NCBI GenBank assembly: GCA_965211635.1 | Contig: OZ242948.1 | Span: 2,054,938-2,118,937, forward strand | Source of the DNA: Dehalococcoidia bacterium | GTDB taxonomy: Bacteria > Chloroflexota > Dehalococcoidia > Bin125 | Reading direction: 5' to 3' | DNA: 64,000 bases | Shown here: in pieces, positions 18,709-64,000 of the stretch | How the letters are laid out: each line of letters begins with the position of its first letter | Position numbering within the stretch: the first letter of the stretch is position 1 | Notes under the pieces: model-generated | The model's input: only the letters and a program-made list of their open reading frames with translations | Told to the model about the DNA's origin: nothing | Databases searched by the model: none | Translations under genes and position numbers: made by a program

Positions 18709-18716
18709 GAATCCGC

Positions 18717-23827: not shown

Positions 23828-23863
23828 GCGAGAACGGATCGCAGGCGGGCTGGGCGCCGTTCG

Positions 23864-24787: not shown

Positions 24788-24847
24788 GAGAATCGCTTAC
24801 CCGTTGGATGAGCGGGTTTCATGGACACCGGAACAGACTTGTGACGC

Positions 24848-24988
24848 TCAGACGACGGTCAGCCGACGACGGCCACGTGCGCGGCGGCGTTTGAGTACGG
24901 CGCGGCCGCCGCGGCTCGACATTCGCTTCAGGAATCCATGTTCCCGCTTGCGCGGAATCCGTTTTGGTTGATACGTGCGTTTCGGCAT
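24848..24988 (-). CDS. rpmH: 50S ribosomal protein L34
   Basis: Own minus-strand translation: [46 protein letters not shown] (46 aa). Not in the ORF track (<60 aa). Canonical L34, upstream of rnpA. Confidence 0.85.
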
Positions 24989-25128
24989 CGTCTCCCTCAA
25001 CACATCACAGGACACGCCGGCCCGGTCGTCGAAGAGCGGTAGGACAAGTACCGCTCAGTATAAGCCAGTCACGTCGGTTTCCACGTTGCCTGAGTTGCGT
25101 TCCTGCACAGTTGCCGCATGCCTGCTGC

Positions 25129-32928: not shown

Positions 32929-33080
32929 CGCCGACTTGCGCGTAGATCGGTTACGGTCGGCCCCGCGCAGGCGGGGCCGCGTGGCGCTTTTCGGTCGAGT
33001 CGCCCCCGCCTGTGGAGACCTTTGCGTAAGTCGTCGGCCGCTGGGGTTCGGTGAGTGTTGCTGTCTGCCGACCAGAAACC

Positions 33081-33165
33081 CAGATGGATTCCCGCCTGCG
33101 CGGGAATGACGGAGTATGGGATTGCTCACAAGTCTCCCTGCGAGGGGGCGACTTGTCTGTTGAGC
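33081..33165. repeat. Repeat family A copy (GGATTCCCGCCTGCGCGGGAATGACGG hairpin) plus flanking GC hairpin
   Basis: ATTCCCGC-CTGC-GCGGGAAT perfect hairpin followed by TGACGGAG. The identical 27-mer recurs at 53768, 55610, 56284; inverted at 56141; variant at 48315. Confidence 0.65.
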
Positions 33166-44162: not shown

Positions 44163-44193
44163 GCTGTGCGCCTCTTTCTTTCCGTATCGCTCG

Positions 44194-46128
44194 TTATCCG
44201 CGCAGCAGGAAGGCGAGGCCGCCCGCGAGGGCGACGCCGATCACCATGAGCAGCGCATAGTCGGGAATTCGTCCAGTGACGTGGTAGCGCAGCCAGTAGG
44301 CGGCGTAGCGCGTCGCGTCGGCCGGCGCATTGATGCCGGTGTCATTGACGATCATGCGGTCGAACCAGGCCACGACTCGGGCCAGCGGCAGCATCGCGCG
44401 GTCGATGCCCCACTGGTAGGCCTCGTCGAAGTAGAACTTGTTCTCGATCACTGCAGCCAGTCGGGGCTGGAACTCGCGCACGGCCTGGGCGCGATGAGCG
44501 TTTCGTCCCCAGAAGAACCAGTACGCGGTCAAGAATCCGAGCAGTGAGACAGTGCCGGTTACCGCGGCGATCGAGTTGGAGAAGTGGAAGTCGTGGGGCT
44601 CGGGGAAGTAGACGTAGTTGTTGATGCCGCCGGGGAAGCCGAGCGCGTCACCGACCTGGTCGAATGCGACGAACCCGATCAGGAAGGTGAGCACGGCGAG
44701 AAAGACGAGCGGGATCAGGATGGTTGGGGATGCCTCGCGGGCGCGGCGGATCACCGCAATGTCCTTGGGCGGACCGAAGAAGGTGATGATCACCAGCCGC
44801 GCCATGTAGAGCGCCGAGAGGAAAGCGGCGATTCCGAGCAGGATGGCAATGGCGGTGTTGGCGCCGCCAAGCGTGGCGACGAAAATCTCGTCCTTGGAGA
44901 AGAAGCCGGACAGCGGAGGGATGCCGGCCAGCGCGACTGAGGAGATGATGAAGGTCGAGGCGGTCACCGGCATGCGCCACCAGAGTCCGCCGAGCTTGCG
45001 CGCGTCTTGCTCCTCGGTCATGTGGATTACGGATCCGGAGCCGAGGAAGAGACAGGCTTTGAAGAAGGCATGCGTGAGCAGATGGAACATGGCAATGCCG
45101 ACGGCGCCGACCCCCAGGGCGACGAACATGAATCCCAGTTGCGACACAGTGGAGTAGGCGAGCACTCGCTTGATGTCGTTTTGCGCCAGCGCCATCATCC
45201 CTGCGAGCAGCGCGGTAGTCAGGCCGACCGCGAGCACGACGTTGGAGGCGCCCGGGGTGACCTCGAAGACGGGCAGCAGCCGCGCGACCAGGTAGACGCC
45301 GGCAACGACCATGGTGGCGGCGTGGATCAGCGCGGAGACGGGTGTGGGGCCTTCCATCGCGTCGGGCAGCCAGACATGGAAGGGCACCTGGGCCGACTTG
45401 CCGGCCGCGCCCAGGAAGAGCATCAGGGTTGAGAGTGTGAGGTAGCCGTCGCCCATGACCTGGGGCAGGTCGTTGACGCGGCCTGCTTCTGCGGCGGCGA
45501 TGATGTCGGAGATCTGGAAGGACCCGGTTGCGCGCCAGAAGAGGATGATGCCGATAAACAGGCCGACATCGCCCAATCGCGTGGTGACGAACGCCTTCTT
45601 GGCCGCCTCGACGGCGGAGCGGCGCTCGTAGTAGAAGCCAATCAAGAGGAAGGAACAGAGACCGACGCCCTCCCAGGCGACAAACATCAGCAGAAGGTTG
45701 TCGGCCAGGACCAGGGTCAGCATCATCGCCACGAACAGCGAGAGCACGGCGAAATACCACCAGTAGCGCGGCTCGGGACGTCCGTGGTGTCTGAGGTAGT
45801 TGGTCGAGTAGATGTTGACCATCAGCGCCACGGTCGCGACCACGAAGACCATCACCATTGCGATCGAATCGACCGTGAACCCGAGGCGGACGACGAAGCT
45901 GTCGAAGTTGATCCAGTCGGTGCCGACGTTGCGGATTCCACCTAGACCGGCGCCCAGCCAGTCGAGGTGGGATTCAAGCACGAAAAAGAAGAGCACAAAC
46001 ACGGCGAGCGCCGCGCCCACGGAGATGAAGTCGCCGCCGCGCGGCAGCTTGCGACCGAAGAGGAACAGGACGACGAAGGAGATGGCCGGGATCGCCGGCA
46101 AAATCCATGCGTGGTCAGCCCAGATCAT
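44194..46128 (-). CDS. nuoL: NADH-quinone oxidoreductase subunit L
   Basis: 644 aa, longest antiporter-like subunit with C-terminal helix extension. Confidence 0.9.
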   Translation of the reverse strand: MIWADHAWILPAIPAISFVVLFLFGRKLPRGGDFISVGAALAVFVLFFFVLESHLDWLGAGLGGIRNVGTDWINFDSFVVRLGFTVDSIAMVMVFVVATVALMVNIYSTNYLRHHGRPEPRYWWYFAVLSLFVAMMLTLVLADNLLLMFVAWEGVGLCSFLLIGFYYERRSAVEAAKKAFVTTRLGDVGLFIGIILFWRATGSFQISDIIAAAEAGRVNDLPQVMGDGYLTLSTLMLFLGAAGKSAQVPFHVWLPDAMEGPTPVSALIHAATMVVAGVYLVARLLPVFEVTPGASNVVLAVGLTTALLAGMMALAQNDIKRVLAYSTVSQLGFMFVALGVGAVGIAMFHLLTHAFFKACLFLGSGSVIHMTEEQDARKLGGLWWRMPVTASTFIISSVALAGIPPLSGFFSKDEIFVATLGGANTAIAILLGIAAFLSALYMARLVIITFFGPPKDIAVIRRAREASPTILIPLVFLAVLTFLIGFVAFDQVGDALGFPGGINNYVYFPEPHDFHFSNSIAAVTGTVSLLGFLTAYWFFWGRNAHRAQAVREFQPRLAAVIENKFYFDEAYQWGIDRAMLPLARVVAWFDRMIVNDTGINAPADATRYAAYWLRYHVTGRIPDYALLMVIGVALAGGLAFLLRG

Positions 46129-46144
46129 CAGCGCACGCTCCCGC

Positions 46145-46459
46145 TTACCACTTGAGGAGATTCACTTCGTCGACGTTGGCGGTGGCTCGGTTGCGGAAGG
46201 TCCGCACGACGATGCCCAGCGCGAGCGCGACCTCGGCGGCCGCGATCACGATGATGAAGAAGGCGAAGACAATCCCGGTGATGTTGCCGAAGTCGACGTG
46301 ACCATAGACGGCGAAGGCGACCATGTTGAGCGACACGGCGTTGAGCATGAGCTCGACCGAGAGCAGGATCAGTACCGCGTTGCGACGCGTGAGCACGCCC
46401 ATTGCGCCAATGGCGAAGAGCACCGCGTTGACGACGAGGATGTGCTCGAGTGGCGGCAT
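46145..46459 (-). CDS. nuoK: NADH-quinone oxidoreductase subunit K
   Basis: 104 aa, three-TM, MPPLEHILVVNAVLFAIGAMGVLTRRNAVLILLSVELMLNAV. Confidence 0.9.
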   Translation of the reverse strand: MPPLEHILVVNAVLFAIGAMGVLTRRNAVLILLSVELMLNAVSLNMVAFAVYGHVDFGNITGIVFAFFIIVIAAAEVALALGIVVRTFRNRATANVDEVNLLKW

Positions 46460-46977
46460 CAGTTCTCATCCTCGTCTGGTGAGGCGAGCATGATCGCGCC
46501 GTCAAGCGCAATCGAGAGCAGCACGCCGACGATGATGAAGGGCACAATCCAGAGGGTGAAGATGGCGTCGCCAATCGCTTGCAGGCCAACCGGCTCGAAG
46601 GCGGCTGAGGACTCGGGTGTGGTCCAGGTGGTCGCGACGATGCCACCGATTAGTGCGGCCAGCAGGCCAAGCGCAGCGGCGACGCCCAGCGGACGCGAGC
46701 GTCCGAAGAGCGCCTGCGGGCGCTCGCGAGCGCGTGTCAGCATCAACGCGAAGAGGATCAGGATGACGACGGCGGAACCGTAGATCAGGAGCTGGACGAG
46801 GGCGATGAACTCAACCGTGAGGATCAAGTAGATTCCGGCGACGCCGGCGAGCGAGGCAATGAAGAAGAGCGCGGCGTAGACGATGTTACCCACGGTGACC
46901 ACGCCAATCGCGGAGATCAGCATGACCACGGCCAGGATCCAGAACACCACCTGGGTTGCGGTTACGCCGTCCTCCAC
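46459..46977 (-). CDS. nuoJ: NADH-quinone oxidoreductase subunit J
   Basis: 172 aa, VVFWILAVVMLISAIGVVTVGNIVYAALFFIASLAGVAGIYL. Confidence 0.9.
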   Translation of the reverse strand: MEDGVTATQVVFWILAVVMLISAIGVVTVGNIVYAALFFIASLAGVAGIYLILTVEFIALVQLLIYGSAVVILILFALMLTRARERPQALFGRSRPLGVAAALGLLAALIGGIVATTWTTPESSAAFEPVGLQAIGDAIFTLWIVPFIIVGVLLSIALDGAIMLASPDEDEN

Positions 46978-47005
46978 TGGTCCCCTCTCCCTCTGCTCTG
47001 GATGA

Positions 47006-48214
47006 CTAGTCGCCGCCGGCTTCGACCGGGGTGACTTCGGGTGCGGTGATCACGCGCGGCGTGGCCGGCGTGGTCTGTACGGTCCGGGCGCCCTGGCCCT
47101 GCTTGCGGCTCATGATGTAGTAGACCAGTCCGCCGAGCGCGACGAGCAGCCCGAACGAGACCAGGCCCACGACCCAGTCGGCGCCGCCATAGGCGAGGAT
47201 GATGCCGTTGGCGATGACCTGAAGAATGGCGAAGGGCAGCAGAACCTTCCAAGAGAACGACATGAGCTGGTCGATGCGCAGCCGGGGGAAGAGTGCGCGG
47301 GAGCCGATCACGAGCACGATCATGACCGAGGTTTTGACAAAGGTCAGCACGATCTGCAATCCGAGTCCGACATCGGCTCCGAAGGGCCAGTTCCAGCCGC
47401 CAAGGAAGAGCGACGAGGCGAGCACGACGAGCAGGAAGAGCGCGGTGTACTCGGCGAGGAAGAACATACCCCAACGCATGCCGGAGTACTCGACGAAGTA
47501 GCCGCCGACAACCTCAGACTCGGCGATCGGCATGTCGAACGGCGGGCGGTGCAGTTCGGCCAGCATGCCGACGATGAAAATGAAGAAACCAAGCGGCTGC
47601 AGCAGGATGTACGGCGTTGTGGTCTGATCGCCGACGATGGCGTTGATCGATCCGGCGGCAGAAGCGTCGCCGTCAACGGCAAGGCGTCCGGCGGCGACCA
47701 TCACCACCGCGACGACGATCAGCAACATTGGGATTTCGTAGGAGATGGCCTGGGCGGCGGCTCGGACTCCACCGAGCAGGGCGTACTTGTTGTCCGAGCC
47801 CCAGGCGGCCATGACGACGCCGACGATGTTCAGGCCGAGCACGCCGAAGACGAACAGCAGGCCCAGATTAAGGTCGCGGATGAACCAGGTCTCGGTAAAG
47901 GGCATGGGCACGAATACGAGAAAGACCGGGACGAAGGCCATGTAGGGCGCCAGCTCGAAGGCCCAGCGATCGGCCGTGATCGGCCGGACGTCTTCCTTGG
48001 TAATGAGCTTGAGCGCGTCGGCGATTGATTGGAGTGTGCCGACGGGACCGGTGCGGGTTGGACCGACCCGCGCCTGGAAACGCGCAAGGATTTTCCGCTC
48101 GAGGTAGATCAGGGCGAACGCCATGATCGTCATCAGTGCGACGATGAAGATGATGCGCAGCAGCGCATCAATCCAGTCGGGCATGCTGACGCCTGCGAAC
48201 TCGCTCAGGACCAT
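47006..48214 (-). CDS. nuoH: NADH-quinone oxidoreductase subunit H with ~35 aa C-terminal extension
   Basis: LIYLERKILARFQARVGPTRTGPVGTLQSIADALKL, canonical NuoH/ND1. No nuoI gene lies between nuoH and nuoJ. Confidence 0.9.
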   Translation of the reverse strand: MVLSEFAGVSMPDWIDALLRIIFIVALMTIMAFALIYLERKILARFQARVGPTRTGPVGTLQSIADALKLITKEDVRPITADRWAFELAPYMAFVPVFLVFVPMPFTETWFIRDLNLGLLFVFGVLGLNIVGVVMAAWGSDNKYALLGGVRAAAQAISYEIPMLLIVVAVVMVAAGRLAVDGDASAAGSINAIVGDQTTTPYILLQPLGFFIFIVGMLAELHRPPFDMPIAESEVVGGYFVEYSGMRWGMFFLAEYTALFLLVVLASSLFLGGWNWPFGADVGLGLQIVLTFVKTSVMIVLVIGSRALFPRLRIDQLMSFSWKVLLPFAILQVIANGIILAYGGADWVVGLVSFGLLVALGGLVYYIMSRKQGQGARTVQTTPATPRVITAPEVTPVEAGGD

Positions 48215-48289
48215 TTAGCGCATCCCCACCCGCTGTTGCGGCAACTCACGCAGGTTACACGCGATCCGGCTTATGCCCATCCTGTCGGG

Positions 48290-48450
48290 AGGGCCACTGA
48301 TGCCGGGAAATCGAGATTCCCGCCTCCGCGGGAATGACGGAGGTGGAGGCGGGAATGACGGAGGTGGAGGCGGGAATGACGGAGGTGGAGGCGGGAATGA
48401 CGGAGGTGGAGGCGGGAATGCGGGAGGTGGGGGCGGGAATGACGGAGATG
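48290..48450. repeat. Family A hairpin followed by ~5.5 tandem copies of a 21-bp unit (GGAGGTGGAGGCGGGAATGAC), in the nuoD-nuoH spacer
   Basis: GATTCCCGCCTCCGCGGGAATGACGG then GGAGGTGGAGGCGGGAATGAC x5 (last copies degenerate). The antisense ORF 48215..48457 translating as PPPPPSF repeats is an artefact of this array. Confidence 0.7.
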
Positions 48451-48456
48451 GTGGCA

Positions 48457-49620
48457 TTAGCGGTCAACCTCGCAGAGCACGATGTCAATCGAGCCGAGGG
48501 CGACGACGGCGTCGGCGAGGTATGTGTTGAGCACCTGCGGCCTGAGTGACGAGAGGTTGTGAAAGCATGGCGAGCGCATCTTCACACGCCAGGGCTTGTC
48601 GGTGCCGTCGGAGACCATGTAGATGCCGTACTCGCCGCGTGGGTTTTCCTGGCGCATGTAGATCTCGCCGGGTTCCGGGCGCAAGCGGGCGGGCATGCGT
48701 TCGGGCATGATCGGGCCTGAGGTCGGCATCTGCTCGAGCGCCTGGCGGAGGATGGTGACGGACTGGCGCATCTCTTCGAGACGCACGAGGTAGCGGTCGT
48801 AGACGTCGCCGCGCTCGCCCACAGGGATTTCCCAGTGGAAGCGGTCGTAAATCGAGTAGGGCTCGTCGACGCGCAGGTCGAAGGGCACGCCGGAGGCGCG
48901 CAGCATGGGGCCGGTGACGCCGTAGCCAATCGCCTCGTCGGCGGTCATTGCGCCGATGTCGCGGCAGCGGGCGACGAAGACCTCGTTGTTGGTCATCAGC
49001 TCGTCGACGTCGGTGATGCCGACTTCGACCTGGTCGAGGACCCAGTGCGAGTCTTCGACAAAGGTCTCGTGCGGCTCCCAGGCGAGTCCGCCGACGCGGA
49101 AGTAGTTGTACATGATGCGGTCGCCGCAGACGGCCTCGAACAGGTCCTGGATACGCTCGCGCTCCTTGAAGGTCCAGGTGAAGGCGGTGCCGAAGTAGCC
49201 GACGTCGGTGCCGAAGGCGCCCATGAACATGAAGTGCGAAAGGATGCGGTTGAGCTCGGCCAGGATCAGTCGGACGTACTCGGCGCGTTCGGGGATCTCG
49301 ATGCCGGCGAGGCGCTCGACGGCGTTGACGTAGACCCACTCGGAGTTGAAGGCGGCGAGGTAGTCGGTGCGGTCCTGGTAGCCGAGCGCGCCTCGGTAGT
49401 CGAGGTTTTCGGAGAGCTTCTCACCGCCGCGGTGCATGTAACCGATGTAAGGGATGGCGTCCTTAACGATCTCGCCGTCGACGGTGAGGACCATGCGGAA
49501 CACGCCGTGGGTCGCGGGGTGCTGGGGCCCGATGTTGATGTTCATGTCGACGGTCTCGAACTCGCGCTCGACGACAACGGGTTCGGTCAGGACTTCGCCT
49601 TCGAAGGTTTGCTGGACCAC
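48457..49620 (-). CDS. nuoD: NADH-quinone oxidoreductase subunit D (49 kDa)
   Basis: 387 aa, NIGPQHPATHGVFRMVLTVDGEIV... Confidence 0.9.
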   Translation of the reverse strand: MVQQTFEGEVLTEPVVVEREFETVDMNINIGPQHPATHGVFRMVLTVDGEIVKDAIPYIGYMHRGGEKLSENLDYRGALGYQDRTDYLAAFNSEWVYVNAVERLAGIEIPERAEYVRLILAELNRILSHFMFMGAFGTDVGYFGTAFTWTFKERERIQDLFEAVCGDRIMYNYFRVGGLAWEPHETFVEDSHWVLDQVEVGITDVDELMTNNEVFVARCRDIGAMTADEAIGYGVTGPMLRASGVPFDLRVDEPYSIYDRFHWEIPVGERGDVYDRYLVRLEEMRQSVTILRQALEQMPTSGPIMPERMPARLRPEPGEIYMRQENPRGEYGIYMVSDGTDKPWRVKMRSPCFHNLSSLRPQVLNTYLADAVVALGSIDIVLCEVDR

Positions 49621-49643
49621 GCGGTCTTCTCCTTCGTATTCCG

Positions 49644-50642
49644 TTAGTCGCCGCGCAACTGCGCGCGCCTGGCGGCGGCGAGTTCACGGCCGACACGGAT
49701 GCGTTCTGCCTGTGCGGCTGCGCGACCTTCGGGGTCTTCTTCGGCGTCTGGAATGGTGGGTAGCTCGGGCGGCGGCGGCGCGGGGGGTCGGTCGTCCTGA
49801 ACCGGAGCCGCGGACGGCGCGGCCTGGGTCGCCGGGGCGGCAGCCGGAGCAGCCGCCGGGGGCGGCGGCGGAGCGGCGCCTTCGGGTCGGGGCCCTCCGG
49901 CGGGCGGCGCGCCAGCCAGGCGTTCGGCGCGGCGGACGGCCGCCAGTTCTCGGGCGCGGGCGACGCGCTCGGCCTGCTCGGCGCGGCGCTGCTCGCGTTC
50001 TTCCTCGGTCATGTCCTCAACGCGCTTGCGCTCGGGAGCGGCGGCTGTGGGCGTTTCAGCAGCCTCTTCCTCTTCGGCAGGCTCGGGCGGCGGGTGTTGC
50101 TTGGTGAAGAACTCAACGTCGACGCCCTGCTCCATCTCGATCGGCGCGAGTGGATAGCTCTTGCGCAGCGGGTGAATGTCAATGTCTTCGTCGAGCAACA
50201 GGTTGCGTGGGTCGGGATGGCCGATGAACTCGATGCCGAACATCTCGCGGCATTCACGCTCGGCCCAGTCGGCCATCGGATAGAGGTCGGCGACCGATTC
50301 GACGACAGCGCCTTCCGATGGCAGCCAGGACTTGATCGTGACGGCCTGGCGCTGGGGAATCGAGTACAGGTGATAAACGATTTCGAGGCCGCGGTCTTCC
50401 CAGTCGACGGCGGTCTGGTTGCGCAGCAGGTTCATCTGCAGGCGATCGTCGTCGCGGCCGCGCTCGAGCACCTCGTGGATGGCGTCGGAGGGAATGGTCA
50501 GCGCGACGTCGTCGCCCTTGGTCAGGGCTGCCTCGAAGCTGATCAGCGGCATGACCTCGCGATAGGTCTCGGCGATCGAACCGGGCGGCGGCTCGTTGCT
50601 CGTCGGCTCTTCAGGAGCAGCGGGAGTGCGGCGTGACGTCAT
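49644..50642 (-). CDS. nuoC: NADH-quinone oxidoreductase subunit C (30 kDa) with ~150 aa Ala/Pro/Glu-rich C-terminal tail
   Basis: N-terminal ~180 aa NuoC fold (EIVYHLYSIPQRQAVTIKSWL...YPMADWAERECREMFGIEFIGHPD). The tail PPPEPAEEEEAAETPTAAAPERKRVEDMTEEEREQRRAEQ...APPPPPAAAPAAAPATQAAPSAAP... is low complexity. Confidence 0.85.
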   Translation of the reverse strand: MTSRRTPAAPEEPTSNEPPPGSIAETYREVMPLISFEAALTKGDDVALTIPSDAIHEVLERGRDDDRLQMNLLRNQTAVDWEDRGLEIVYHLYSIPQRQAVTIKSWLPSEGAVVESVADLYPMADWAERECREMFGIEFIGHPDPRNLLLDEDIDIHPLRKSYPLAPIEMEQGVDVEFFTKQHPPPEPAEEEEAAETPTAAAPERKRVEDMTEEEREQRRAEQAERVARARELAAVRRAERLAGAPPAGGPRPEGAAPPPPPAAAPAAAPATQAAPSAAPVQDDRPPAPPPPELPTIPDAEEDPEGRAAAQAERIRVGRELAAARRAQLRGD

Positions 50643-50648
50643 AGTCGA

Positions 50649-51221
50649 TCAGTAACCCCGCGCGCGTTCTTCGACGATTTTCTCCTGCAGGGCCAGGAGG
50701 CCGTCGATCAGAGCTTCGGGACGCGGCGGACAGCCGGGAACGTAGACATCCACAGGGACGATGTTGTCGACGCCCTGGACGACGCGGTCGTACTGGGTGT
50801 AGGGGCCGCCGTTGGTGGCGCAGGCGCCCATGGAAATGACCCACTTGGGATGCGGCATTTGCTCGTAGAGCAGCTTGACCGCGGGCGCCATCTTCTTGGT
50901 CACGGTGCCTGCCACGATCATCACGTCGGACTGCCTGGGCGAAGGCCAGGGGACGATGCCGAAGCGGTCGAGGTCGTGGTTGGCCATGTAGGTGGCGATC
51001 ATTTCAATGGCGCAGCAGGCGAGACCGAAGGTCATCGGCCACAACGAAGACTTGCGCGCAGCGGAAATCAGCGCCTCTGCAGGCGCCTGCATCACGCCGG
51101 GGAGGACGACCTTGTAGGGAACGGTGGGCGGCGCGTCATCGACCGCCTGGAGCCGGAGCGATTCGGGGGAGATGATGACGGGCGTCGGGTCGCCCATGTG
51201 TGGTGGCTGAGAGGTCGTCAT
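50649..51221 (-). CDS. nuoB: NADH-quinone oxidoreductase subunit B (20 kDa, N2 cluster)
   Basis: 190 aa, [11 protein letters not shown]...CPPRPEAL; conserved Cys ligands. Confidence 0.9.
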
Positions 51222-51246
51222 GCGTCCCGTCTCGCTTCGTGTTGCG

Positions 51247-51636
51247 TTAGTTGCGTTGCCAGTCGAAGACGCCCTTGCGCCAAGCGTAGGCCAGCGCGAT
51301 CAGCAGGGTTCCGATGAACAGCACCATCTGCCAGAGAATCACCTTGCCGAACTCTGGCCCGTCCATCAGACCGAGGAACGAAACGGCCCAGGGCAAGAGG
51401 AAGACGACCTCGACATCGAAGACGAGGAACAGCAGGGCGTATGTGTAGTAGCGCACGTGAACCTGGGCCCAGTTGCGCCCGATCGGCAGCATGCCGCACT
51501 CGTAGACCTGTCCCTTGAGCGCGGTGCGGCGCTGAGGCGCGAGCAGCTTGGTCGCCAACAGCGCGGTGAGGACGAGCATGATCCCGACCGGGATCGCGAC
51601 CAGCACTGCGCCGTAGTTCTCGAACAGTTCAGACAC
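51247..51636 (-). CDS. nuoA: NADH-quinone oxidoreductase subunit A
   Basis: 129 aa, YECGMLPIG...[15 protein letters not shown]. Confidence 0.9.
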
Positions 51637-51764
51637 GACTACCTGCCGTCACCCGCACTGGAGATGAGCACCAGATTTCGTGGTGCGAAGAGATCGTACC
51701 CGCGCTCAGTGATCAGGGTCAATGTTTGGCCGAACCAAGCGGGTGCCTATGAGGAGATTTCCGC

Positions 51765-51842
51765 CTGTAGGGGCGCCCCTTGTGCGTGCCCGCGGCATAC
51801 ATCGCCGTCCTACAGGCAGGGCGCCCACAAGGGGCGCCGCTA
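51765..51842. repeat. MITE-like inverted-repeat element, family B (divergent copy), between nuoA and the GNAT gene
   Basis: CTGTAGGGGCGCCCCTTGTGCGTGCCC ... TCCTACAGGCAGGGCGCCCACAAGGGGCGCCGCTAC. Overlaps the GNAT stop codon. Confidence 0.6.
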
Positions 51843-52334
51843 CCGGGACCCATCAGGCAGATCGCGTTCGTACTTGAACTCGACCGTGTCGTTGACGTCG
51901 TCTAGCTTGCGGGTGTCGGACTTGACGTAACCAAGGCGCTCGTAGAGGCGGTGGGCGTCTTCGAAGCGGGTGTCGGACCAGAGTTCAATACGCGAGGCGC
52001 CCTGCTCCCGCGCCCAGTCGACCGCGGTTTCGAAGAGGCGGCGACCAAGACCCTTGCCGCGCAGGTGGGCGTCGAGATAGAGGCGGTGCAGCTCGACGGT
52101 CGGTCCATCGATCCGATTTGCGGCGATCGACCCGACGACCTCGCCCGTGTCGTCGCGCATCACCCACATTGCACCGATCGGTGCGCGGTAGGGAAAGGCG
52201 TGCTCCTCGGACAGCAGGTCCCAGAACTCGTCCTCGGGGTCCCAGATGAAGCCGTATTCGTCGAACACGCGGTGGATCAGTTGGATTACTTCCGGACAGG
52301 CGTCGTGGCCGGTCGGTTCAATCGGGAAGGTCAT
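51840..52334 (-). CDS. GNAT family N-acetyltransferase
   Basis: 164 aa, RLYLDAHLRGKGLGRRLFETAVDWAREQGASRIELWSD (acetyl-CoA binding motif A). Stop codon overlaps a family-B repeat. Confidence 0.8.
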   Translation of the reverse strand: MTFPIEPTGHDACPEVIQLIHRVFDEYGFIWDPEDEFWDLLSEEHAFPYRAPIGAMWVMRDDTGEVVGSIAANRIDGPTVELHRLYLDAHLRGKGLGRRLFETAVDWAREQGASRIELWSDTRFEDAHRLYERLGYVKSDTRKLDDVNDTVEFKYERDLPDGSR

Positions 52335-52393
52335 GGCGCGTTACCCTGCTGACTGAATCGACAGATCTGCATCAGGTTGGTGAGGAGCACGAT

Positions 52394-53536
52394 ATGGGAC
52401 CGCTGAGCGGCATTCGCATCATTGAATTCCAGGGCATCGGACCGGGACCGTTCTGCGGGATGATTCTGTCCGACATGGGCGCGGACATCGTGCGCATCGA
52501 CCGAGCGTCGAACGCGCCCTCGGAGGCGCCGGCGAATCCGCCCGGCGATTTGCTGGCTCGAGGCCGGCGTTCGATCGCGCTGGATTTGAAGAATCCCGAG
52601 GGCGTCGAGGTGGCAATGAAGCTGATCGAAGGCGCTGATGCGCTGTTCGAGGGCTTCCGGCCAGGTGTGATGGAACGCCTGGGATTGGGTCCGGACGTGT
52701 GCCTGGAGCGCAACCCGAAGCTGGTCTACGGGCGAATGACGGGTTGGGGACAGGAGGGTCCCTACGCGCAGATGGCGGGGCATGACATCAACTACATCTC
52801 GCTAGCTGGAGCGCTTGCGCCGATCGCACGCAAGGGACAGGCGCCGGTGCCGCCGCTGAACCTGGTCGGCGACTTCGGCGGCGGCGGCATGTATCTCGCT
52901 GTGGGCATGTTGGGCGCGTTGATCGAGGCGCAACGCTCGGGCAAGGGTCAAGTGGTGGACGCGGCGATGGTGGACGGCGCGTCGTCGCTGATCACTTCCG
53001 TGCATGCGGGACTGGCGACGGGCGGCTGGCGTCGCGGCCGCGCGGCCAACGTGCTCGACACGGGCGCGCACTTCTACGATGCCTACGAGACGCTGGACGG
53101 CAAGTACGTCTCGATTGGCTCGATCGAGCCGCAGTTCTACGCCGAGCTGCTGCACCTGCTGGGCTTGGAGAACGAGGAACTGCCGCGCCAGATGGACAAC
53201 ACGCGCTGGCCGGAGCTGAAGGAGCGGGTGACGGCGATCTTCCGCACGAAAACCCGCACGGAGTGGGAAGCGATCTTCGAGGGATCGGACGTCTGCTTTG
53301 GACCAGTGCTGGAGCCGTGGGAGGCGCCGAACCACCCACACGCAAAGGCTCGCGGCGCGTTCGAAGAGGTCGCGGGCATCGTGCAGCCTGCGCCCGCGCC
53401 GAGGTTCAGCCGGACGAAGTCGGCGATCCAGGGTCCGCCGGCGTATCCGGGTGAGCACACGGACGAGATCCTCGCCGAGATCGGACTGAACGGGTCGCAG
53501 GGCGAGGAGTTGAAGACGGCGGGCGCCGTTCGCTAG
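52394..53536 (+). CDS. CoA transferase family III (CaiB/BaiF; alpha-methylacyl-CoA racemase-like)
   Basis: 380 aa, GIRIIEFQGIGPGPFCGMILSDMGADIVRIDR...; typical family-III N-terminal motif and an Asp-containing active-site region. Confidence 0.8.
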   Translation: MGPLSGIRIIEFQGIGPGPFCGMILSDMGADIVRIDRASNAPSEAPANPPGDLLARGRRSIALDLKNPEGVEVAMKLIEGADALFEGFRPGVMERLGLGPDVCLERNPKLVYGRMTGWGQEGPYAQMAGHDINYISLAGALAPIARKGQAPVPPLNLVGDFGGGGMYLAVGMLGALIEAQRSGKGQVVDAAMVDGASSLITSVHAGLATGGWRRGRAANVLDTGAHFYDAYETLDGKYVSIGSIEPQFYAELLHLLGLENEELPRQMDNTRWPELKERVTAIFRTKTRTEWEAIFEGSDVCFGPVLEPWEAPNHPHAKARGAFEEVAGIVQPAPAPRFSRTKSAIQGPPAYPGEHTDEILAEIGLNGSQGEELKTAGAVR

Positions 53537-53589
53537 GCCAGTCGTCCACTCGGAGCGCATCTTCGCTCTTGCTCTTTGAGAACCAGGCG

Positions 53590-53930
53590 CCCTCTCTCTT
53601 CCCTCTCCCCCCGCTCCGCGGGGGGAGCTGCCGAAGGCAGTGAGGGGTCCGAGAAAGTGGCAGTTGGCGGCGCCCCCCTTCAGTCCCCCCGCCGACGGAG
53701 ACCTTAGCGAAACTCGTCGGCCGCCGGGTTCGGTATGTTTTCCTGTTCGCTGACCGAATAGCCGGATGGATTCCCGCCTGCGCGGGAATGACGGAATGTG
53801 CGATTACGCGCAGGTCTCCTTACGCGGGGGCAGGCTCTACGGGACAGCTTCCCTCCAGGGGGAAGCGGGTTTCGCGCAATCGGACACGAACAAGCCCCCG
53901 ACGCTGCGCGTCGGGGGCTTGTGTTGATGC
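53590..53930. repeat. Composite ~340-bp array of family C and family A repeat modules filling the CoA-transferase/groEL intergenic region
   Basis: CTCCCCCCGC-TCCG-CGGGGGGAG, GGCGCCCCCC..., GGATGGATTCCCGCCTGCGCGGGAATGACGG (53768), CTACGGGACAGCTTCCCTCCAGGGGGAAG, CCCCCGACGC-TGC-GCGTCGGGGG. Confidence 0.65.
53880..53920. terminator. GC-rich hairpin, candidate bidirectional intrinsic terminator between the CoA-transferase gene and groEL
   Basis: AAGCCCCCGACGC-TGC-GCGTCGGGGGCTT, a 13-bp perfect stem. T-rich runs on both flanks (minus-strand reading: ...GCUUGUUCGUGU directly after groEL stop). Confidence 0.4.
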
Positions 53931-53948
53931 TCGTTGGAGCGGTTGGAC

Positions 53949-55643
<1,695 letters not shown>

Positions 55644-55940
55644 CTAGACGACCAGCTTGGCGAGGACCTCGCGCTCTTCGAGCACGATCAGGTCCTCGTT
55701 GTCGATCTGGATTTCCTGGCCGGTGTACTTCTTGTAGAGGATGCGGTCGCCCAGCTCGATGTCGAGCGGGACGCGGTTGCCGTCGTCATCGCGCTTGCCC
55801 GGGCCCACGGCGATGACCTCACCCTGCTGCGGCTTTTCCTTGGCCGAGTCGGGGATGACGATGCCAGAGGACAGGACCTGCTCCTGCTGGAGGGGCTTGA
55901 TCACGAGGCGGTCGTTGAGCGGCTTGAGCTCGGTGGCCAT
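55644..55940 (-). CDS. groES: Co-chaperonin GroES
   Basis: Internal start MATELKPLNDRLVIKPLQQEQVLSSGIVIPDSAKEKPQQGEVIAVGPG... (98 aa). The ORF track version (..56003) over-extends through the CIRCE operator. Confidence 0.9.
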   Translation of the reverse strand: MATELKPLNDRLVIKPLQQEQVLSSGIVIPDSAKEKPQQGEVIAVGPGKRDDDGNRVPLDIELGDRILYKKYTGQEIQIDNEDLIVLEEREVLAKLVV

Positions 55941-55990: not shown

Positions 55991-56018
55991 TTAGCACTCT
56001 CACACTTCGAGTGCTAAC
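55991..56018. promoter_or_regulatory. CIRCE operator (HrcA binding site) for groESL
   Basis: Perfect TTAGCACTC-N9-GAGTGCTAA inverted repeat read directly, ~50 nt upstream of the groES start. Confidence 0.85.
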
Positions 56019-56024
56019 GAGTGA

Positions 56025-56053
56025 ATCGTAGGCAAGGAATCTGGCTGCTGCAA
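56025..56053 (-). promoter_or_regulatory. Putative sigma-A type promoter of groESL (TTGCAG-17-TACGAT) just upstream of CIRCE
   Basis: Minus-strand reading cTTGCAGcagccagattccttgccTACGATtcactcg followed by CIRCE. Spacing and position match the Bacillus-type groESL promoter-operator layout. Confidence 0.45.
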
Positions 56054-56139
56054 GAGCGTCGGGCGTTGCAGTGTGGTCGTTACGTCAGGATTGGAGTGTT
56101 GCGTAATCCACTGAACTAAGCACGAGCCGTTGTCGCCGT

Positions 56140-56400
56140 CATTCCCACCGTATCCGTCACTCCATCGCAGGCGGGAATCCATCCGGCACAGCGGTTGCGT
56201 GAGGAACCGGCTGTCGCCTTCCAATCTTAACTGCAGTCGAGCAGGCGCGACAGTCGGCGCTGCGTACGGAGGTCGTCCTGCATGGATTCCCGCCTGCGCG
56301 GGAATGACGGAGGGAGCGCGGGAATGACGGAGGGGGCGCGGGAATGACGGGGAGGGGGGCGCGGGAATGACGGAGGGGGGCGCGGGAGCGATGTGCGGTT
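56140..56400. repeat. Inverted pair of family A units flanking ~95 bp, followed by four tandem ~20-bp units (GCGCGGGAATGACGGAGGGG)
   Basis: Left unit inverted (CGTCATTCCCACCGTATCCGTCACTCCATCGCAGGCGGGAATCCATCC). Right unit direct (GGATTCCCGCCTGCGCGGGAATGACGG at 56284). Then AGGGAGCGCGGGAATGACGG x4. Confidence 0.65.
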
Positions 56401-56514
56401 CATCCACCGAGGCTTCGTGTACAGCCTTGACAACCGCGGCGCGGGACTGATCGATGCGGGGTCGTGGGCTAAGGTGACCGCATACGCCGACGAGCCATGC
56501 GGGGGTGCGCTGCG

Positions 56515-57462: not shown

Positions 57463-57567
57463 GGGAACCCGGCAGCCTGCGGCTGGGTCGATTCACGGGC
57501 ATCTTCGTCACCGTTATACTGGATGTGTATGCCTGCGAGCGTGGGCAGGCTGATTGGGGACTGACGG

Positions 57568-60306
<2,739 letters not shown>

Positions 60307-60308
60307 GT

Positions 60309-61196
60309 ATGGCGAGCAGCGAACCGTCGACCGAGTCGGGCGGCGACGTCCCGTTCCCGCATCTCGCCGAGCGCGACGGCGCTGCCGACACCGGCTTCGC
60401 GCCCGACATCGATCCTGACGATCGTGCGCTTGACGGTCAGCTGATCGAGTCCGGTCCGGATACGCTGCTGGCCTCATTCTGCTCGCAGGTCCTCGGGGGG
60501 CGGCCGTGGTTCGACGCGCTGCTCGATTGCATCCGCGACTGGGAACCTCCGCGCGAGGTCGTCGATGGGCGCGAGTATGTCTACCTGATCGAGCAGGAGG
60601 CCTTCGACTGGTTGCTGCTGGCCGAGCGCATCTGCGACGCGGCTCCGCCAGGATTGCTGCCGGCGCACGAGGTCGAAGCGATGCTGGTGGACGAGTCGCC
60701 GCCGGTGGCGCTGAGCGAGCCGGAGTTCCAGGAACGGCTGGGCACGCCCAAGTACTGGGCGCACCTGAACTTCCTCTATGGCGTGCGGGTCGAGCAAGCG
60801 CTGCACCTGGCGATGGAGCGGGTGCTGCAGAAGGAGCGCAGCGGGTTGTCGTTCTCGCACCAGCGGCAAGAACTGGATGCGGATGTGTTTGGACGGGTTT
60901 ACGGCGCTCGGCAGGCGGACCTGCTGCGCGAGTACCGGGCTGCAAACAACCGCGAGCACATCGACCCGGAGCGGATCGAGCATGCCGAGTGGCAGGCGTT
61001 CACCTATTGGCTGTTCCGTCGCCGGCTGGAGCGTCAGGATCCGGCCCGAGTCGCGAGCGACACGCGGCAGGGGCTGGAGATGCTGTACGAACTGGAAGCG
61101 GCTCGACAGAGGCGCCGGCGACGACGAACGGTCGTGTCGGCCGGCCCGACTGACGAGTCGGACGTCATTGACGGCGTACTGGTCGGCGTAGGCTAG
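60309..61196 (+). CDS. Hypothetical protein
   Basis: Probable start MASSEPSTESGG... (track start 60252 overlaps the secA end). Acidic N-terminus, no motif I can name. Ends with an Arg-rich tract. Confidence 0.4.
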   Translation: MASSEPSTESGGDVPFPHLAERDGAADTGFAPDIDPDDRALDGQLIESGPDTLLASFCSQVLGGRPWFDALLDCIRDWEPPREVVDGREYVYLIEQEAFDWLLLAERICDAAPPGLLPAHEVEAMLVDESPPVALSEPEFQERLGTPKYWAHLNFLYGVRVEQALHLAMERVLQKERSGLSFSHQRQELDADVFGRVYGARQADLLREYRAANNREHIDPERIEHAEWQAFTYWLFRRRLERQDPARVASDTRQGLEMLYELEAARQRRRRRRTVVSAGPTDESDVIDGVLVGVG

Positions 61197-61286
61197 GTTC
61201 GGCGCGCTCGATGGCTGGCACGCGCCGAACCCGCAACCTCACCCCACTTGCCACACCCCAGACCCTCGATCAAGCGGAGTTCAGCA

Positions 61287-64000
61287 GTGACCACCTCTGA
61301 ATTCGACCTGTCCATCCTCAGCGAACTGAGCGGCGCCTACGACGCCTCAGTCGTCGAGGATCCGATCTACGCCTACTGGGAAGACAATGGCTGGTTCCGA
61401 CCGAGCGGACCTTCTCTCTCCGCCTCGGCGGAGCCTGTCCGCGCGGAGGCGGGGAGGGAGGCGACGCAGGTAGAGGGGGATTCGGTCGCGGGATCCAGAG
61501 GGACCCCCTCTGTCCCTACGGGACAGCTCCCCCTGCCAGGGGGAGCGGAGGCTCGGAAGCCGTTCACGGTGATCATGCCGCCGCCCAATGTGACGGGAGT
61601 GTTGCACCTGGGTCATGCAGTGACGCTGACGATCGAGGACGTATTGATCCGTTGGCACAGAATGCTCGGCGAGCCGACGCTCTGGTTGCCGGGGCTGGAC
61701 CATGCGGGAATCGCGACGCAAAGCGTGGTCGAGCAGCAACTCGCGCGCGAGGGGATGACGCGGCACGACCTCGGTCGTGACGCCTTCGAGGAACGTGTCT
61801 GGGATTGGGTCGGCGTGACCCGACCGCGGATCACCGCGCAGGCTCGGCGGATGGGCGCGTCGTGTGACTGGGAGCGGACAGCGTTCACGCTCGACCCGAC
61901 GCCGCGCGCGGCGGTGCGCAAGACGTTCGTCGATCTGTTCAAGGACGGCAAGATCTATCGCGGCGCGCGGATCATCAACTGGGATCCGCAGATGCTGACG
62001 GCGCTCTCGGATGTCGAAGTCGAGTACGAAGAGGAAGACGGGTACCTCTGGCACGTGCGCTATCCATTCGTGGACGAGCGCGGGAACGAACTCGACGACG
62101 GCGTGGTGATTGCCACAACGCGTCCCGAAACGATTCCGGCCGACGTGGCGATCGCGGTGCATCCGGACAGCGAGCGCTGGCAACCGCACCTGGGCCGGCG
62201 CGTGCGACTGCCGCTGCGCGGCTTCAGTCGGCTGATCCCGCTGGTCGCGGACAGCGCGGTCGACCTGGAGTTCGGCACCGGGGCGCTGAAGATCACGCCC
62301 GGTCACGATCAGCTCGACTTCGAGATCGGCGAGCGGCACGGGCTGGAGCCGATCCGCGTCGTTGACTGGGACGGCTCGATGACGGCCGAGGCCGGACTGT
62401 ACGCCGGGATGGATCGGGACGGAGCTCGCACCCTGGTCGCGCAGCATCTCGAAGAGGACGGCTACCTGGTTGAGACCGAGGCGCACGTACACAACGTGGG
62501 GCACTCGCAGCGCTCGGGCGTCGTGGTGGAGCCGCTGGTCTCGAACCAGTGGTTCGTCGACACCGACGATCTGGCGGCCGAGGCGGCGCGGGTCGTGCGC
62601 GAGGGCGAAGTCAAGATTGTGCCCGAGCGCTCGACCTCGGTCTACCTGCAGTGGATGGACAACATCCGTCCCTGGTGCATTTCGCGCCAGCTCTGGTGGG
62701 GACACCGGATTCCTGCCTGGTACTGCACCGTCTGCGACGCCGCGGCGATCATTCGCGGCGACGACGGAGAGATCACGATCGACGAGGACTCGCATCCGAT
62801 AGTCGAGATGGAGGATCCGACAGCCTGCCCGACCTGCGGCAGGTCGGATCTGGTCCAGGATCCGGATGTGCTGGACACGTGGTTCTCGTCCGGCCTGTGG
62901 ACGCATTCGACGCTTGGTTGGCCCGAGACGAGCGACGACCTGTCGCGCTTCTATCCCTCGTCGGTGATGGAGACGGGCTACGACATCCTCTTTTTCTGGG
63001 TCGCGCGAATGATCATGCTGGGCTGCTTCAACATGGGCGAGCCGCCCTTCCACACGGTCTACCTGCATGGTTTGGTCCGCGACGCGCAGGGTCGGAAGAT
63101 GTCGAAGTCGCTGGACAACGTGGTCGATCCGCTGGAGAAGGCGGACCAGTACGGGATGGACGCGCTGCGCTTCACGCTTGCGACCGGCTCGACGCCGGGC
63201 AACGACATGCGCCTCACGGATGAGCGGCTTGAGGGGTCGCGCAACTTCGCCAACAAGCTCTGGAACGGGGCGAGGTTTGTCCTCGGCGAGATTGCGAATG
63301 CGGCGGATGTCGCCCAGGCTTCGTCCGGCGTAGGGGCAACCCTTGTGGTTGCCCGTCCGGACGAAGATGCGACCAACGATACGAACGGGCGACCACAAGG
63401 GTCGCCCCTACAGGAGCCGTTGGAGGACCGTTGGATTCTGTCGCGACTGCAGGCAGTAACGGACTCGGTGGATGAGTTGCTGCGCCAGTTCCAACTCGGC
63501 GAGGCGGGGCGGCAGATCCAGGACTTTCTCTGGGGCGAGTTCTTTGACTGGTACGTCGAGGCGAGCAAGGTGAGGCTGCGCAACGGGGATGCGTCGCCGC
63601 TGCCCGTGTTGGTCACGGTGCTGGACGGTGGATTGCGGCTGCTGCATCCGTGGATGCCGTTCGTGACCGAGGCGATCTGGCAACAGCTTCGGCCGTACGT
63701 ATCTGGGGAAGAGACGACGGCGTTGATCGGAGCTCGCTATCCGCAGCCCGGTGACCGGGAGAGGGACCTTGAGGCGGAAGCGGCCTTTAGCGCGGTGCAG
63801 GAGATCGTCACGGCCGTGCGCCAGGTGCGCGCCGATTACCGCGTCCAGGCCGGACAGTGGGCGGAGGCGTACGTCCTTCCGCGGATTGAGGTCGCCAATG
63901 CGGTCAGCGCCTCGGCGCCGATCGTTGAGGTCCTCTCGAGAGCGCGCCCGCTGACCATCGTCTCGAATCGTGAAGAGGCGCCGACGGAGCAGATTGCGTC
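61287..64000 (+). CDS. valS: Valine--tRNA ligase (5' ~900 codons; runs off window end) carrying two in-frame repeat-element insertions
   Basis: Own translation from GTG ~61287 (GGAG RBS 8 nt upstream): TTSEFDLSILSELSGAYDASVVEDPIYAYWEDNGWFRPS-[insert]-KPFTVIMPPPNVTGVLHLGHAVTLT... (HIGH), later GRKMSKSLDNVVDP (KMSKS) ~63090. Not in the ORF track because it has no stop inside the window. Confidence 0.9.
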   Translation, partial: MTTSEFDLSILSELSGAYDASVVEDPIYAYWEDNGWFRPSGPSLSASAEPVRAEAGREATQVEGDSVAGSRGTPSVPTGQLPLPGGAEARKPFTVIMPPPNVTGVLHLGHAVTLTIEDVLIRWHRMLGEPTLWLPGLDHAGIATQSVVEQQLAREGMTRHDLGRDAFEERVWDWVGVTRPRITAQARRMGASCDWERTAFTLDPTPRAAVRKTFVDLFKDGKIYRGARIINWDPQMLTALSDVEVEYEEEDGYLWHVRYPFVDERGNELDDGVVIATTRPETIPADVAIAVHPDSERWQPHLGRRVRLPLRGFSRLIPLVADSAVDLEFGTGALKITPGHDQLDFEIGERHGLEPIRVVDWDGSMTAEAGLYAGMDRDGARTLVAQHLEEDGYLVETEAHVHNVGHSQRSGVVVEPLVSNQWFVDTDDLAAEAARVVREGEVKIVPERSTSVYLQWMDNIRPWCISRQLWWGHRIPAWYCTVCDAAAIIRGDDGEITIDEDSHPIVEMEDPTACPTCGRSDLVQDPDVLDTWFSSGLWTHSTLGWPETSDDLSRFYPSSVMETGYDILFFWVARMIMLGCFNMGEPPFHTVYLHGLVRDAQGRKMSKSLDNVVDPLEKADQYGMDALRFTLATGSTPGNDMRLTDERLEGSRNFANKLWNGARFVLGEIANAADVAQASSGVGATLVVARPDEDATNDTNGRPQGSPLQEPLEDRWILSRLQAVTDSVDELLRQFQLGEAGRQIQDFLWGEFFDWYVEASKVRLRNGDASPLPVLVTVLDGGLRLLHPWMPFVTEAIWQQLRPYVSGEETTALIGARYPQPGDRERDLEAEAAFSAVQEIVTAVRQVRADYRVQAGQWAEAYVLPRIEVANAVSASAPIVEVLSRARPLTIVSNREEAPTEQIA
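61421..61556. repeat. Family C modular repeat lying in-frame inside the valS coding sequence
   Basis: GAGCCTGTCCGCGCGGAGGCGGGGAGGGAGG..., GGACCCCCTCTGTCCCTACGGGACAGCTCCCCCTGCCAGGGGGAGCGG; same modules as the intergenic copies. Confidence 0.65.
63328..63414. repeat. Family B inverted-repeat element lying in-frame inside valS
   Basis: GTAGGGGCAACCCTTGTGGTTGCCC ...32 nt... GGGCGACCACAAGGGTCGCCCCTACAG; translated as ...GVGATLVVARPDEDATNDTNGRPQGSPLQ... Confidence 0.7.

Follow-up and report, generated by a model that had tools for sequence, protein, structure and literature searches.

In Neisseria, the dRS3 core ATTCCC-N8-GGGAAT belongs to the NIME arrays, in which dRS3 copies flank RS elements of approximately 50-150 bp and which have been called Neisseria-specific (PMC1797815). 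The NTS hairpin CGTCATTCCCGCGMAVGCGGGAATCYRG is bound by SsnA, a 94-aa GIY-YIG nuclease that recognizes it solely in its single-stranded DNA form, cutting 3 nt upstream; Ssn has no action on RNA, and a genome carrying an Ssn-related motif (SRM) is expected to encode a small cd10448 GIY-YIG Ssn nuclease, the motif often flanking its gene (PMC11893778). The 21-mer core ATTCCCGCGCAGGCGGGAATC is the Neisseria REPIN master sequence, which is associated with a Group 2 RAYT (Bertels et al., bioRxiv 10.1101/2021.07.10.451892). Here, we analyzed a 64,000-nt stretch of contig OZ242948.1 (the window) from a Chloroflexota genome of the GTDB class Dehalococcoidia, in which a repeat region at 53590-53930 lies within the 412-nt gap (53537-53948) between a CoA-transferase gene and groEL, which are convergent. 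Loci used for comparison, DNA stretches from other genomes and metagenomes, carry L-numbers. The region was found to be a nested stack in which a family-C unit holds a small hairpin module, the module holds a 131-nt insert with inverted-repeat bounds, and the insert holds an NTS (family A). Probably, it represents a pile-up of independent non-autonomous hairpin repeats in permissive 3' intergenic DNA, beside the probable groEL terminator and at the junction of an inversion. The hairpin repeats are probably selfish. The window and its relatives form a natural experiment that gives handles on how NTS/dRS3 and REP-like hairpins multiply, and the observations yield testable predictions for a hairpin-targeted mechanism based on single-stranded DNA.

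Like the NTS/SRM served by SsnA (PMC11893778), the family-A repeat is a hairpin with an oriented, unpaired 5' CGTCA that occurs intergenically, in multiple clustered copies and across phyla. It differs in its Chloroflexota host, in the lack of an ssn gene in the sequence searched, in its position within a 131-nt insert with inverted-repeat bounds, and in the tandem arrays of cut-side half-sites (period 18-25 nt), on which the main text of PMC11893778 is silent. With dRS3/NIME (PMC1797815) it shares the exact core, intergenic mosaics with other short repeat families, and an array length varying among relatives. However, 53537-53948 contains one dRS3 only and is therefore not a NIME array by definition, whereas true dRS3-spacer-dRS3 arrays occur in other Dehalococcoidia loci (L155, L168 and L063). 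Short GC-rich palindromes piling up in intergenic DNA, often between convergent genes, are also typical of the REP/BIME/REPIN repeats of E. coli, Pseudomonas and Neisseria, and the Neisseria REPIN core is present here. A REPIN joins two inverted REPs, separated by less than 130 bp, into one long hairpin; family A, in contrast, occurs singly here, and NTS lacks a leading GTAG; in contrast to a BIME, there are no Y/Z REPs in alternating orientation with defined linkers, and the modules belong to at least three unrelated, nested families. Family A itself, the mosaic habit of NIME and BIME clusters, and the wide phylogenetic spread are already known, the last from PMC11893778. What appears to be new is the precise nesting of hairpin in hairpin, the restriction of half-site arrays to one side, family C as an element, and the in-frame insertion of repeats into valS; NIME-like mosaics are extended to Chloroflexota.

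Nested hairpins between the CoA-transferase gene and groEL

The original prediction of a mosaic of recurring, REP/BIME-like hairpin modules at 53590-53930 was borne out in this respect, the repeats being of the type known from REP, BIME and NIME clusters, and its coordinates and main sequences were correct. It had also treated the whole intergenic region as one modular array. Instead, it is a nested stack of independent elements, and this "composite array" breaks down into four things: one family-C unit that is intact and one that is triply nested, the probable terminator of groEL, and, for the CoA-transferase gene, a weak hairpin resembling a terminator. The following features occur in the gap:

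53552-53569, plus strand: weak, non-repeat terminator-like hairpin with a T-rich tail, 16 nt past the CoA-transferase stop (from the consensus scan only)
53597-53657, plus strand: intact family-C unit, CCCTCT, CCCCCCGC-tcc-GCGGGGGG, AGCT, GCC-gaa-GGC, AGTGAGGGG (R1 model, 66.4 bits, E ~1e-15)
53673-53878, minus strand: second family-C unit, inverted, its second hairpin interrupted (5' part alone, 53824-53878, 46 bits with R1)
53685-53836, minus strand: small hairpin module AGCCTGCCCCCGC ... GCGGGGGG, arms 53824-53836 and 53685-53692, inside the second hairpin of the family-C unit
53693-53823, minus strand: 131-nt insert in the module loop, bounded by GGAGACC (53697-53703) and GGTCTCC (53813-53819) and carrying the family-A hairpin
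53766-53794, minus strand: family-A hairpin, NTS / Ssn-related motif, CGTCATTCCCGCGCAGGCGGGAATCCAT, dRS3 core at 53770-53789
53890-53922, minus strand: non-repeat hairpin, probable intrinsic terminator of groEL, 15-bp stem and 3-nt loop, 26 nt past the groEL stop

Family C has a consensus of approximately 55 nt: CCyCTC, a first hairpin (C-run/G-run), AGmT (AG(A/C)T), a second hairpin, and AGAGGGGGG. The intact unit folds as two hairpins upon a short closing stem. The covariance model R1, built from six sequences including the 53597 copy, yielded 11 strong copies (E <5e-6), six of which are the model's own sequences; seven lie in the window, two in L171 and three, minus one weaker, in L099. Weak copies occur in L172 and L176, and more distant Dehalococcoidia gave marginal matches only. 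Pair counts exceeded those of both shuffle and slide controls, with 89% of cells paired and 4 pairs changed on both sides, and the second hairpin varies by compensating changes (GTCCC/GGGAC, GTCAC/GTGAC, GCC/GGC, GCCCC/GGGGC and CCCGC/GCGGG). Units occur in either orientation relative to adjacent genes.

In the second unit, read on the minus strand, the first hairpin (53865-53848) and GTCCC GTAG (53845-53837) are followed only much later by GGAC (53686-53683), which overlaps the GCGGGGGG arm of the small module (53692-53685), and by the tail TGAAGGGGGG (53682-53673). Without the insert, the unit aligns with composite units in L171 (9214-9309) and L172, whose inner hairpin has a 7-nt loop, "acttgat". 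The small module with this loop occurs in L171, L172 and L173-175, and with loop variants in L176, L081 and at 35722 of the window. Several modules had been predicted separately. GTCCC-GTA-GGGAC does recur, being intact at 9707 and 61512, but the region itself contains only a 2-mismatch match, since its halves, GTCCCGTAG (53845-53837) and GGAC (53686-53683) on the minus strand, lie approximately 150 nt apart with the nested insertion between them. The CTCCCCCCGC hairpin (53605-53627) likewise recurs, with an exact copy at 35828 (0.06 expected) and a copy with a 4-nt loop at 9680, but its own loop has 3 nt rather than the proposed four. For CTTCCCTCCAGGGGGAAG (53848-53865) we found no exact recurrence, yet the covariance model identifies it as the first hairpin of a family-C unit.

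The 131-nt insert with its outer arms has a counterpart that the original prediction did not mention: 53686-53831 is approximately 80% identical to 33003-33149, defining a unit of approximately 146 nt. Family A is not simply embedded within C modules, as had been proposed, but rides in the insert, and the copy at 33003-33149 has the insert and its arms with no family-C context. No further copies of the 146-nt unit were obtained by blastn and nhmmer over 170 to 181 loci or in two metagenome scans, apart from a partial right arm in L095, where 471-510 is similar to the right arm of the insert.

Nesting by a second module is seen in relatives. An identical 24-nt string, AGCCTGCCCCGCACTTGATGCGGG (AGCCTGCCCCGC-acttgat-GCGGG), lies 3' of the loop in three different host hairpins, at L171 9266-9289, L172 11787-11811 and L173-175 11767-11791, with variants at L176 11169, L081 1557 and 35722 of the window. 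Deleting the 24 nt exactly restores the host hairpin GTCTC-gta-GAGAC in L171; in L172 it restores GCC-gaa-GGC, equal to the uninterrupted unit in L176, and in L173 an SRM-variant hairpin, CGTCATTGCCGCG...CGCGGCAATC. This placement suggests insertion targeted by DNA structure. The original prediction had suggested freely combining, possibly recombining modules; elements that inserted independently, one inside another, account better for the insert-free alignment and the precise 24-nt excision.

The recurrences are not chance matches in GC-rich DNA, the condition under which the mosaic was to be given up. The window contains 21 perfect hairpins with stems of at least 8 bp, mostly intergenic, compared to 7.5 +/- 2.3 in first-order Markov simulations, and, folded as a single strand, the region is far more stable than shuffled sequence (z = -4.7 and -4.9 for the two strands). 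A chance or low-complexity origin was rejected, as shuffles and simulations stayed far below the observed counts.

To judge from its sequence, family A is the dRS3/NTS repeat of Neisseria. The copy at 53766-53793 (minus strand) agrees with the published NTS at 27 of 28 positions, the last G being replaced by T. Copies at 53766, 33084 and 56282 have one mismatch each and fall within the limit of at most one mismatch used in the published search (PMC11893778), while the copy at 48312 has two. The degenerate SRM pattern HGTCWYN(0-2)YYVSBRHN(0-5)WNVSBRGN(0-2)RNCYNB (PMC11893778) has 3 matches in the window, that at 53766 among them, compared to 0.88 +/- 0.94 in simulated sequence. As predicted originally, the 27-mer GGATTCCCGCCTGCGCGGGAATGACGG at 53768-53794 recurs: when up to 3 mismatches are allowed, the window has 6 matches, of which 3 are exact (0 expected); exact family-A copies lie at 33084 and 56282. 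The exact dRS3 ATTCCC-N8-GGGAAT at 53770-53789 has further copies at 33088, 48316 and 56286. Folded as DNA, both strands show the hairpin, with an 8-bp perfect stem and a 4-nt loop, in their minimum-free-energy as well as their centroid structure. Outside the window, the exact 27-mer was found in 52 viral-contig stretches with a GC content of 43 to 70%, and the exact 29-mer in at least 118 genome stretches from Pseudomonadota, Chloroflexota, Planctomycetota, Bacteroidota, Desulfobacterota, Acidobacteriota, Latescibacterota and Patescibacteria. Ssn-like genes directly adjoin NTS in L002 and L080 and lie at most approximately 260 nt away in L054 and L114.

Tandem copies of GCGGGAATGACGG, separated by 7-9-nt spacers, come after a full NTS at two sites of the window (48328-48453 and 56298-56402). 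Half-site arrays also occur in L078, L090, L109, L112, L124, L134, L155, L003 and L046. Arrays with other spacers are seen in Dehalococcoidia loci that are unrelated, and in probably neisserial viral contigs of low GC content (43-46%). Over all sequence analyzed, orphan half-sites (equal-length 10-mers) numbered 136 for the GACGG side and 29 for the other, and tandem half-sites, with periods of 18-25 nt, 71 and 0; arrays are restricted to the Ssn-cut side. The amplified half is the one that bears CGTCA, the determinant, and the site at which Ssn cutting has been mapped (PMC11893778). Half-site tandem arrays go unmentioned in the main text of that paper. A CRISPR-like array was rejected for the 20-21-nt tandem repeats, since their units are NTS half-sites with 7-9-nt spacers.

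Different NTS subtypes occur side by side in one genome (ATTCCCGC/GCGGGAAT, ATACCCGCG/CGCGGGTAT and ATTGCCGCG/CGCGGCAAT; L095 250-510, L173 11700-12100, L176 5300-5500 and 12320-12780), all of them with the CGTCA lead. Their coexistence hints at several Ssn paralogues or a relaxed specificity. Small spurious open reading frames readily arise from NTS repeats, for example at 53798-54031 and 56000-56407, for which Pfam gave no family; ATG GAT TCC CGC CTG CGC GGG AAT GAC GG (56282-56310, 33084-33112 and 53766-53794) translates as MDSRLRGNDG. For annotation, such MDSRLRGNDG-type reading frames can be flagged.

Turnover at orthologous sites and the inversion junction

Which repeat element stands at an orthologous site, if any, varies among close relatives. 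At the groEL site, relatives with a GroEL of 96-98% identity were compared. Beyond the probable groEL terminator, L171 contains nothing in a gap of 122 nt, L172 other hairpins of family-C type, and L173-175 other SRM variants and inserted genes. A second comparison was provided by the 33-kb copy, located between MMPL and peptidase genes (MMPL 85-92% identical): the gap measures 251 nt in the window compared to an empty 12 nt in L181; in L180 it has 172 nt and contains another hairpin. The 131-nt insert is not present at these sites, and no NTS occurs in the 22-kb loci L180 and L181. In the nuoH-nuoD gap, the window has an NTS with five 21-nt half-site repeats and L178 the same NTS with one half-site; L179 has a degenerate copy, L176 two other SRM variants, and L177 none.

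Turnover extends into coding sequence. The valS gene (plus strand, from approximately 61287 and running off the window end) carries an in-frame insertion at 61403-61559, with a net gain of approximately 129 nt, so that the linker from WFRP to PFTVIMPPPN has 54 aa compared to 10-11 aa in L171, L172, L173 and L176. Within the insertion lie a CTCCGCC/GGCGGAG hairpin and a family-C unit that is complete (61497-61545), and the 905 valS codons in the window contain no stop. At 63330-63411, valS also has an in-frame, REPIN-like doublet of family B, consisting of GTAGGGGCAACCCTTGTGGTTGCCC, 31 nt and GGGCGACCACAAGGGTCGCCCCTAC and encoding GVGATLVVARPDEDATNDTNGRPQGSPLQ, which is not found in L171, L172, L176 and L178. 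These elements explain the insertions in ValRS, the valyl-tRNA synthetase. Rickettsia palindromic elements are palindromic repeats that lie in frame within essential protein-coding genes. The valS family-C unit and family-B doublet, outside 53590-53930, resemble them in this respect but are unrelated in sequence and host.

The spacer between groES and groEL contains a hairpin in the window and in every relative, while its family differs. In the window it is a decayed NTS (55610-55636); in the relatives (L171 9935-10000, L172 9928-10000, L173 9934-10000) it is CTTCTCCCCC/GGGGGAGAC, TTCTCCCCCC/GGGGGAGAAC or CCGCTCCGCC/GGCGGAGGG. This could reflect selection for any mRNA hairpin or an insertion hot spot.

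The region also marks a rearrangement. Seven relatives have the gene order nuo, acetyltransferase, CoA-transferase(+), [SIS-domain gene(+)], valS(-), an approximately 300-aa gene(-), secA(-), ..., prs(-), groES(+), groEL(+), rpoC(-), whereas the window has CoA-transferase(+), groEL(-), groES(-), prs(+), secA(+), a 314-aa gene(+), valS(+). The groEL-to-valS segment, at least roughly 10 kb, is inverted relative to seven relatives (among L171-L178), and the inversion is specific to the lineage of this genome. By blastn, 43062-53529 is colinear with L176 and L178 and 57566-64000 is reversed; the repeat region therefore is the left junction of the inversion, with two family-C units lying tail to tail across it, and the other junction is beyond the window. 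Presumably, the inverted segment extends to the SIS-domain gene that follows the CoA-transferase gene in the relatives. This gene, as well as a 611-680-aa gene between secA and prs, is present in the relatives and not in the window.

Explanations for the mosaic

If, as is probable, the region is a pile-up of independent hairpin repeats, each repeat family would spread via a single-stranded hairpin intermediate, generated or processed by a nuclease or transposase that has sequence or structure specificity and is encoded elsewhere in the genome. For NTS the candidate would be Ssn, and for the families bearing GTAG perhaps an enzyme of the Y1/RAYT type. The mosaic would arise from a preference of new copies for sites within or next to hairpins already there, and the array as a whole would have no dedicated cellular function. 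Incidental effects are possible, namely extra RNA hairpins in both 3' untranslated regions and short inverted homology favouring rearrangement. Several points weigh against this explanation. Transposition of NTS/SRM has never been demonstrated, insertion-sequence-like behaviour having been raised as a hypothesis only (PMC11893778). The 131-nt insert exists in two copies only, with approximately 80% mutual identity, to which two metagenome scans added none, and no target-site duplication or defined target sequence was identified for these elements. An Ssn gene was not found by tblastn and with a hidden Markov model of 6 Ssn homologues in the window, 11 close-relative loci and 29 Chloroflexota blocks. 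The check for a REP-associated transposase suggested with the original prediction likewise revealed none, nor an Ssn nuclease, in the window and approximately 230 kb of relatives' loci. Neither an Ssn nor a RAYT gene was thus found in the sequence searched, and a cognate enzyme in this lineage is hypothetical. Finally, the ever-present groES-groEL spacer hairpin, of whatever family, hints that some hairpins are selected for a role at the RNA level.

A more specific mechanism would be active insertion targeted by DNA structure, with the 24-nt module and the 131-nt NTS carrier, as candidates, entering the loop or 3' arm of other extruded hairpins with precision, and the one-sided half-site arrays being traces left where Ssn nicked repeatedly and repair of the slipped or flap type ensued. 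We consider this unlikely; if true, a GIY-YIG nuclease would drive a new class of non-autonomous mobile DNA, coding sequences included. Improbable to a similar degree is the explanation that the hairpins are functional RNA elements, which would be transcribed as part of the 3' untranslated regions of groEL and the CoA-transferase gene and of the groES-groEL spacer, and would act as terminators, 3'-exonuclease barriers or processing sites by which mRNA stability and the groES:groEL ratio are set. In some E. coli operons, REP elements play such roles. The very strong predicted folding, the convergent neighbours, by which both strands are probably transcribed, the conservation of the spacer hairpin in every relative despite its differing family, and the pairing of family C maintained by compensatory changes would fit such roles. 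However, what follows the terminator hairpin ranges from nothing (L171) to 500 nt of unrelated repeats at a GroEL identity of 96-98%, family-C units are found in either orientation with respect to transcription and within a coding sequence as well, and the region has no Rfam match. The unpaired flanks of NTS (CGTCA...CC) are conserved across phyla, which agrees better with a protein that recognizes the repeat than with an RNA stem, and Ssn is inactive on RNA (PMC11893778). An RNA-level role may apply to some hairpins, notably that in the groES-groEL spacer, but leaves the turnover, the dual orientation and the cross-phylum flank conservation unexplained.

The NTS core is the master sequence of the Neisseria REPINs with their Group 2 RAYT, REPIN-like inverted NTS pairs occur in the Dehalococcoidia locus L078 and in L185/L186, and a REP family of the window that is distinct from NTS carries a leading GTAG and forms inverted doublets. 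All this would agree with a REP/REPIN-BIME system of the classical type, moved by a RAYT (Y1 transposase) and along the lines of the original prediction, in which family A is the REP and the other modules are BIME-like linkers. We give this explanation a small chance only: tblastn with an E. coli RAYT as query, of limited sensitivity and over an incomplete genome, found no RAYT-like sequence in the window and 175 loci; the NTS copies of the window are mostly singlets, with one degenerate inverted pair (56136-56310); the GTAG/GTGG tetranucleotide that leads RAYT-type REPs is missing from NTS; experimentally, Ssn is the partner published for NTS (PMC11893778); and the other modules are separate repeat families rather than linkers. 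Less likely still is an origin of the mosaic mainly from recombination, with the inversion joining two repeat-bearing intergenic regions that were once separate, and homologous or illegitimate exchange between short palindromes shuffling the modules. The region is exactly the left junction of the inversion relative to 7 relatives, both ancestral intergenic regions carry palindromic repeats in relatives, and the two family-C units lie tail to tail over the junction. Yet recombination accounts for the juxtaposition of left and right parts and not for the precise nesting of hairpin within hairpin, which is also found at unrearranged sites in relatives.

Neighbouring genes, terminators and further repeat families

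The genes flanking the repeat region and their regulatory site are:

52394-53536, plus strand: CaiB/BaiF-type CoA-transferase gene (PF02515 in homologues)
53949-55577, minus strand: groEL (PF00118)
55644-55940: groES, upstream of groEL
55991-56017: canonical CIRCE operator, TTAGCACTC-N9-GAGTGCTAA, upstream of groES

GroEL homologues at 95-98% identity come from chromosomes of metagenome-assembled genomes in ENA/NCBI, and the CoA-transferase homologue at 96% identity is annotated "Chloroflexi bacterium". An exact look-up of the GroEL protein encoded in the window gave no record.

The terminal hairpin of the region had been predicted to be a repeat module with a 13-bp stem. Its stem has 15 bp, it does not recur, and it is probably groEL's own terminator. 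A hairpin is located directly 3' of groEL in all relatives compared (L171-L175), in the same place and with a different self-complementary sequence (compensating changes), as would be expected of a terminator. Like a Rho-independent terminator, the hairpin at 53890-53922 is GC-rich, lies just 3' of the stop, and keeps its position in relatives; it differs in its weak T-tract (TTCGTGT), because of which it was missed by the consensus scan. This comparison applies to the terminal hairpin and not to the repeats. Rfam at the gathering threshold detected 3 tRNAs only, and a permissive scan of the region gave sub-threshold noise only; a known RNA family was therefore rejected for the region.

A third repeat family, family B, has the form GTAGGGGCGACC-cttgt-GGTCGCCC, with a leading GTAG as in RAYT-type REPs, and often forms inverted, REPIN-like doublets. 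It was found at 12794, 38512/38545, 51818 and 63334/63387 of the window as well as in L078, L090, L124 and L130; the inverted doublets, less than 130 bp apart, are those at 38512/38545 and 63334/63387. NIME-like NTS-spacer-NTS arrays in chromosomes of Dehalococcoidia metagenome-assembled genomes have periods of approximately 60, 79, 96 and 213 nt (L155 602-1139 and 6613-7272; L168 6564-6832; L063 1922-2095 and 7264-7468). Two microbial-mat metagenome loci (L185 1830-2040 and L186 2190-2400) contain a MITE-like element with an inverted NTS pair and the ends GAATGGCACTTAAGCC and GGCTTAAG..GTGCCATTC.

All five intact or near-intact NTS copies of the window (33086, 48314, 53768, 55610 and 56284) lie on one strand, to the right of a sign change in GC skew. 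Among 60 genome loci, the orientation of NTS relative to local GC skew was 36 versus 24 and not significant (p = 0.16). An apparent orientation bias of NTS in Chloroflexota is not claimed, being confounded by G-rich repeat arrays. The skew changes sign at approximately 18700-25000, being negative below approximately 22 kb and positive above approximately 40 kb. The zone of change lies near parA/parB-like and yidC/jag-like genes, contains the 12-nt tandem repeat TCGAACCATGCG x4 (24361-24408), and may be the replication-origin region.

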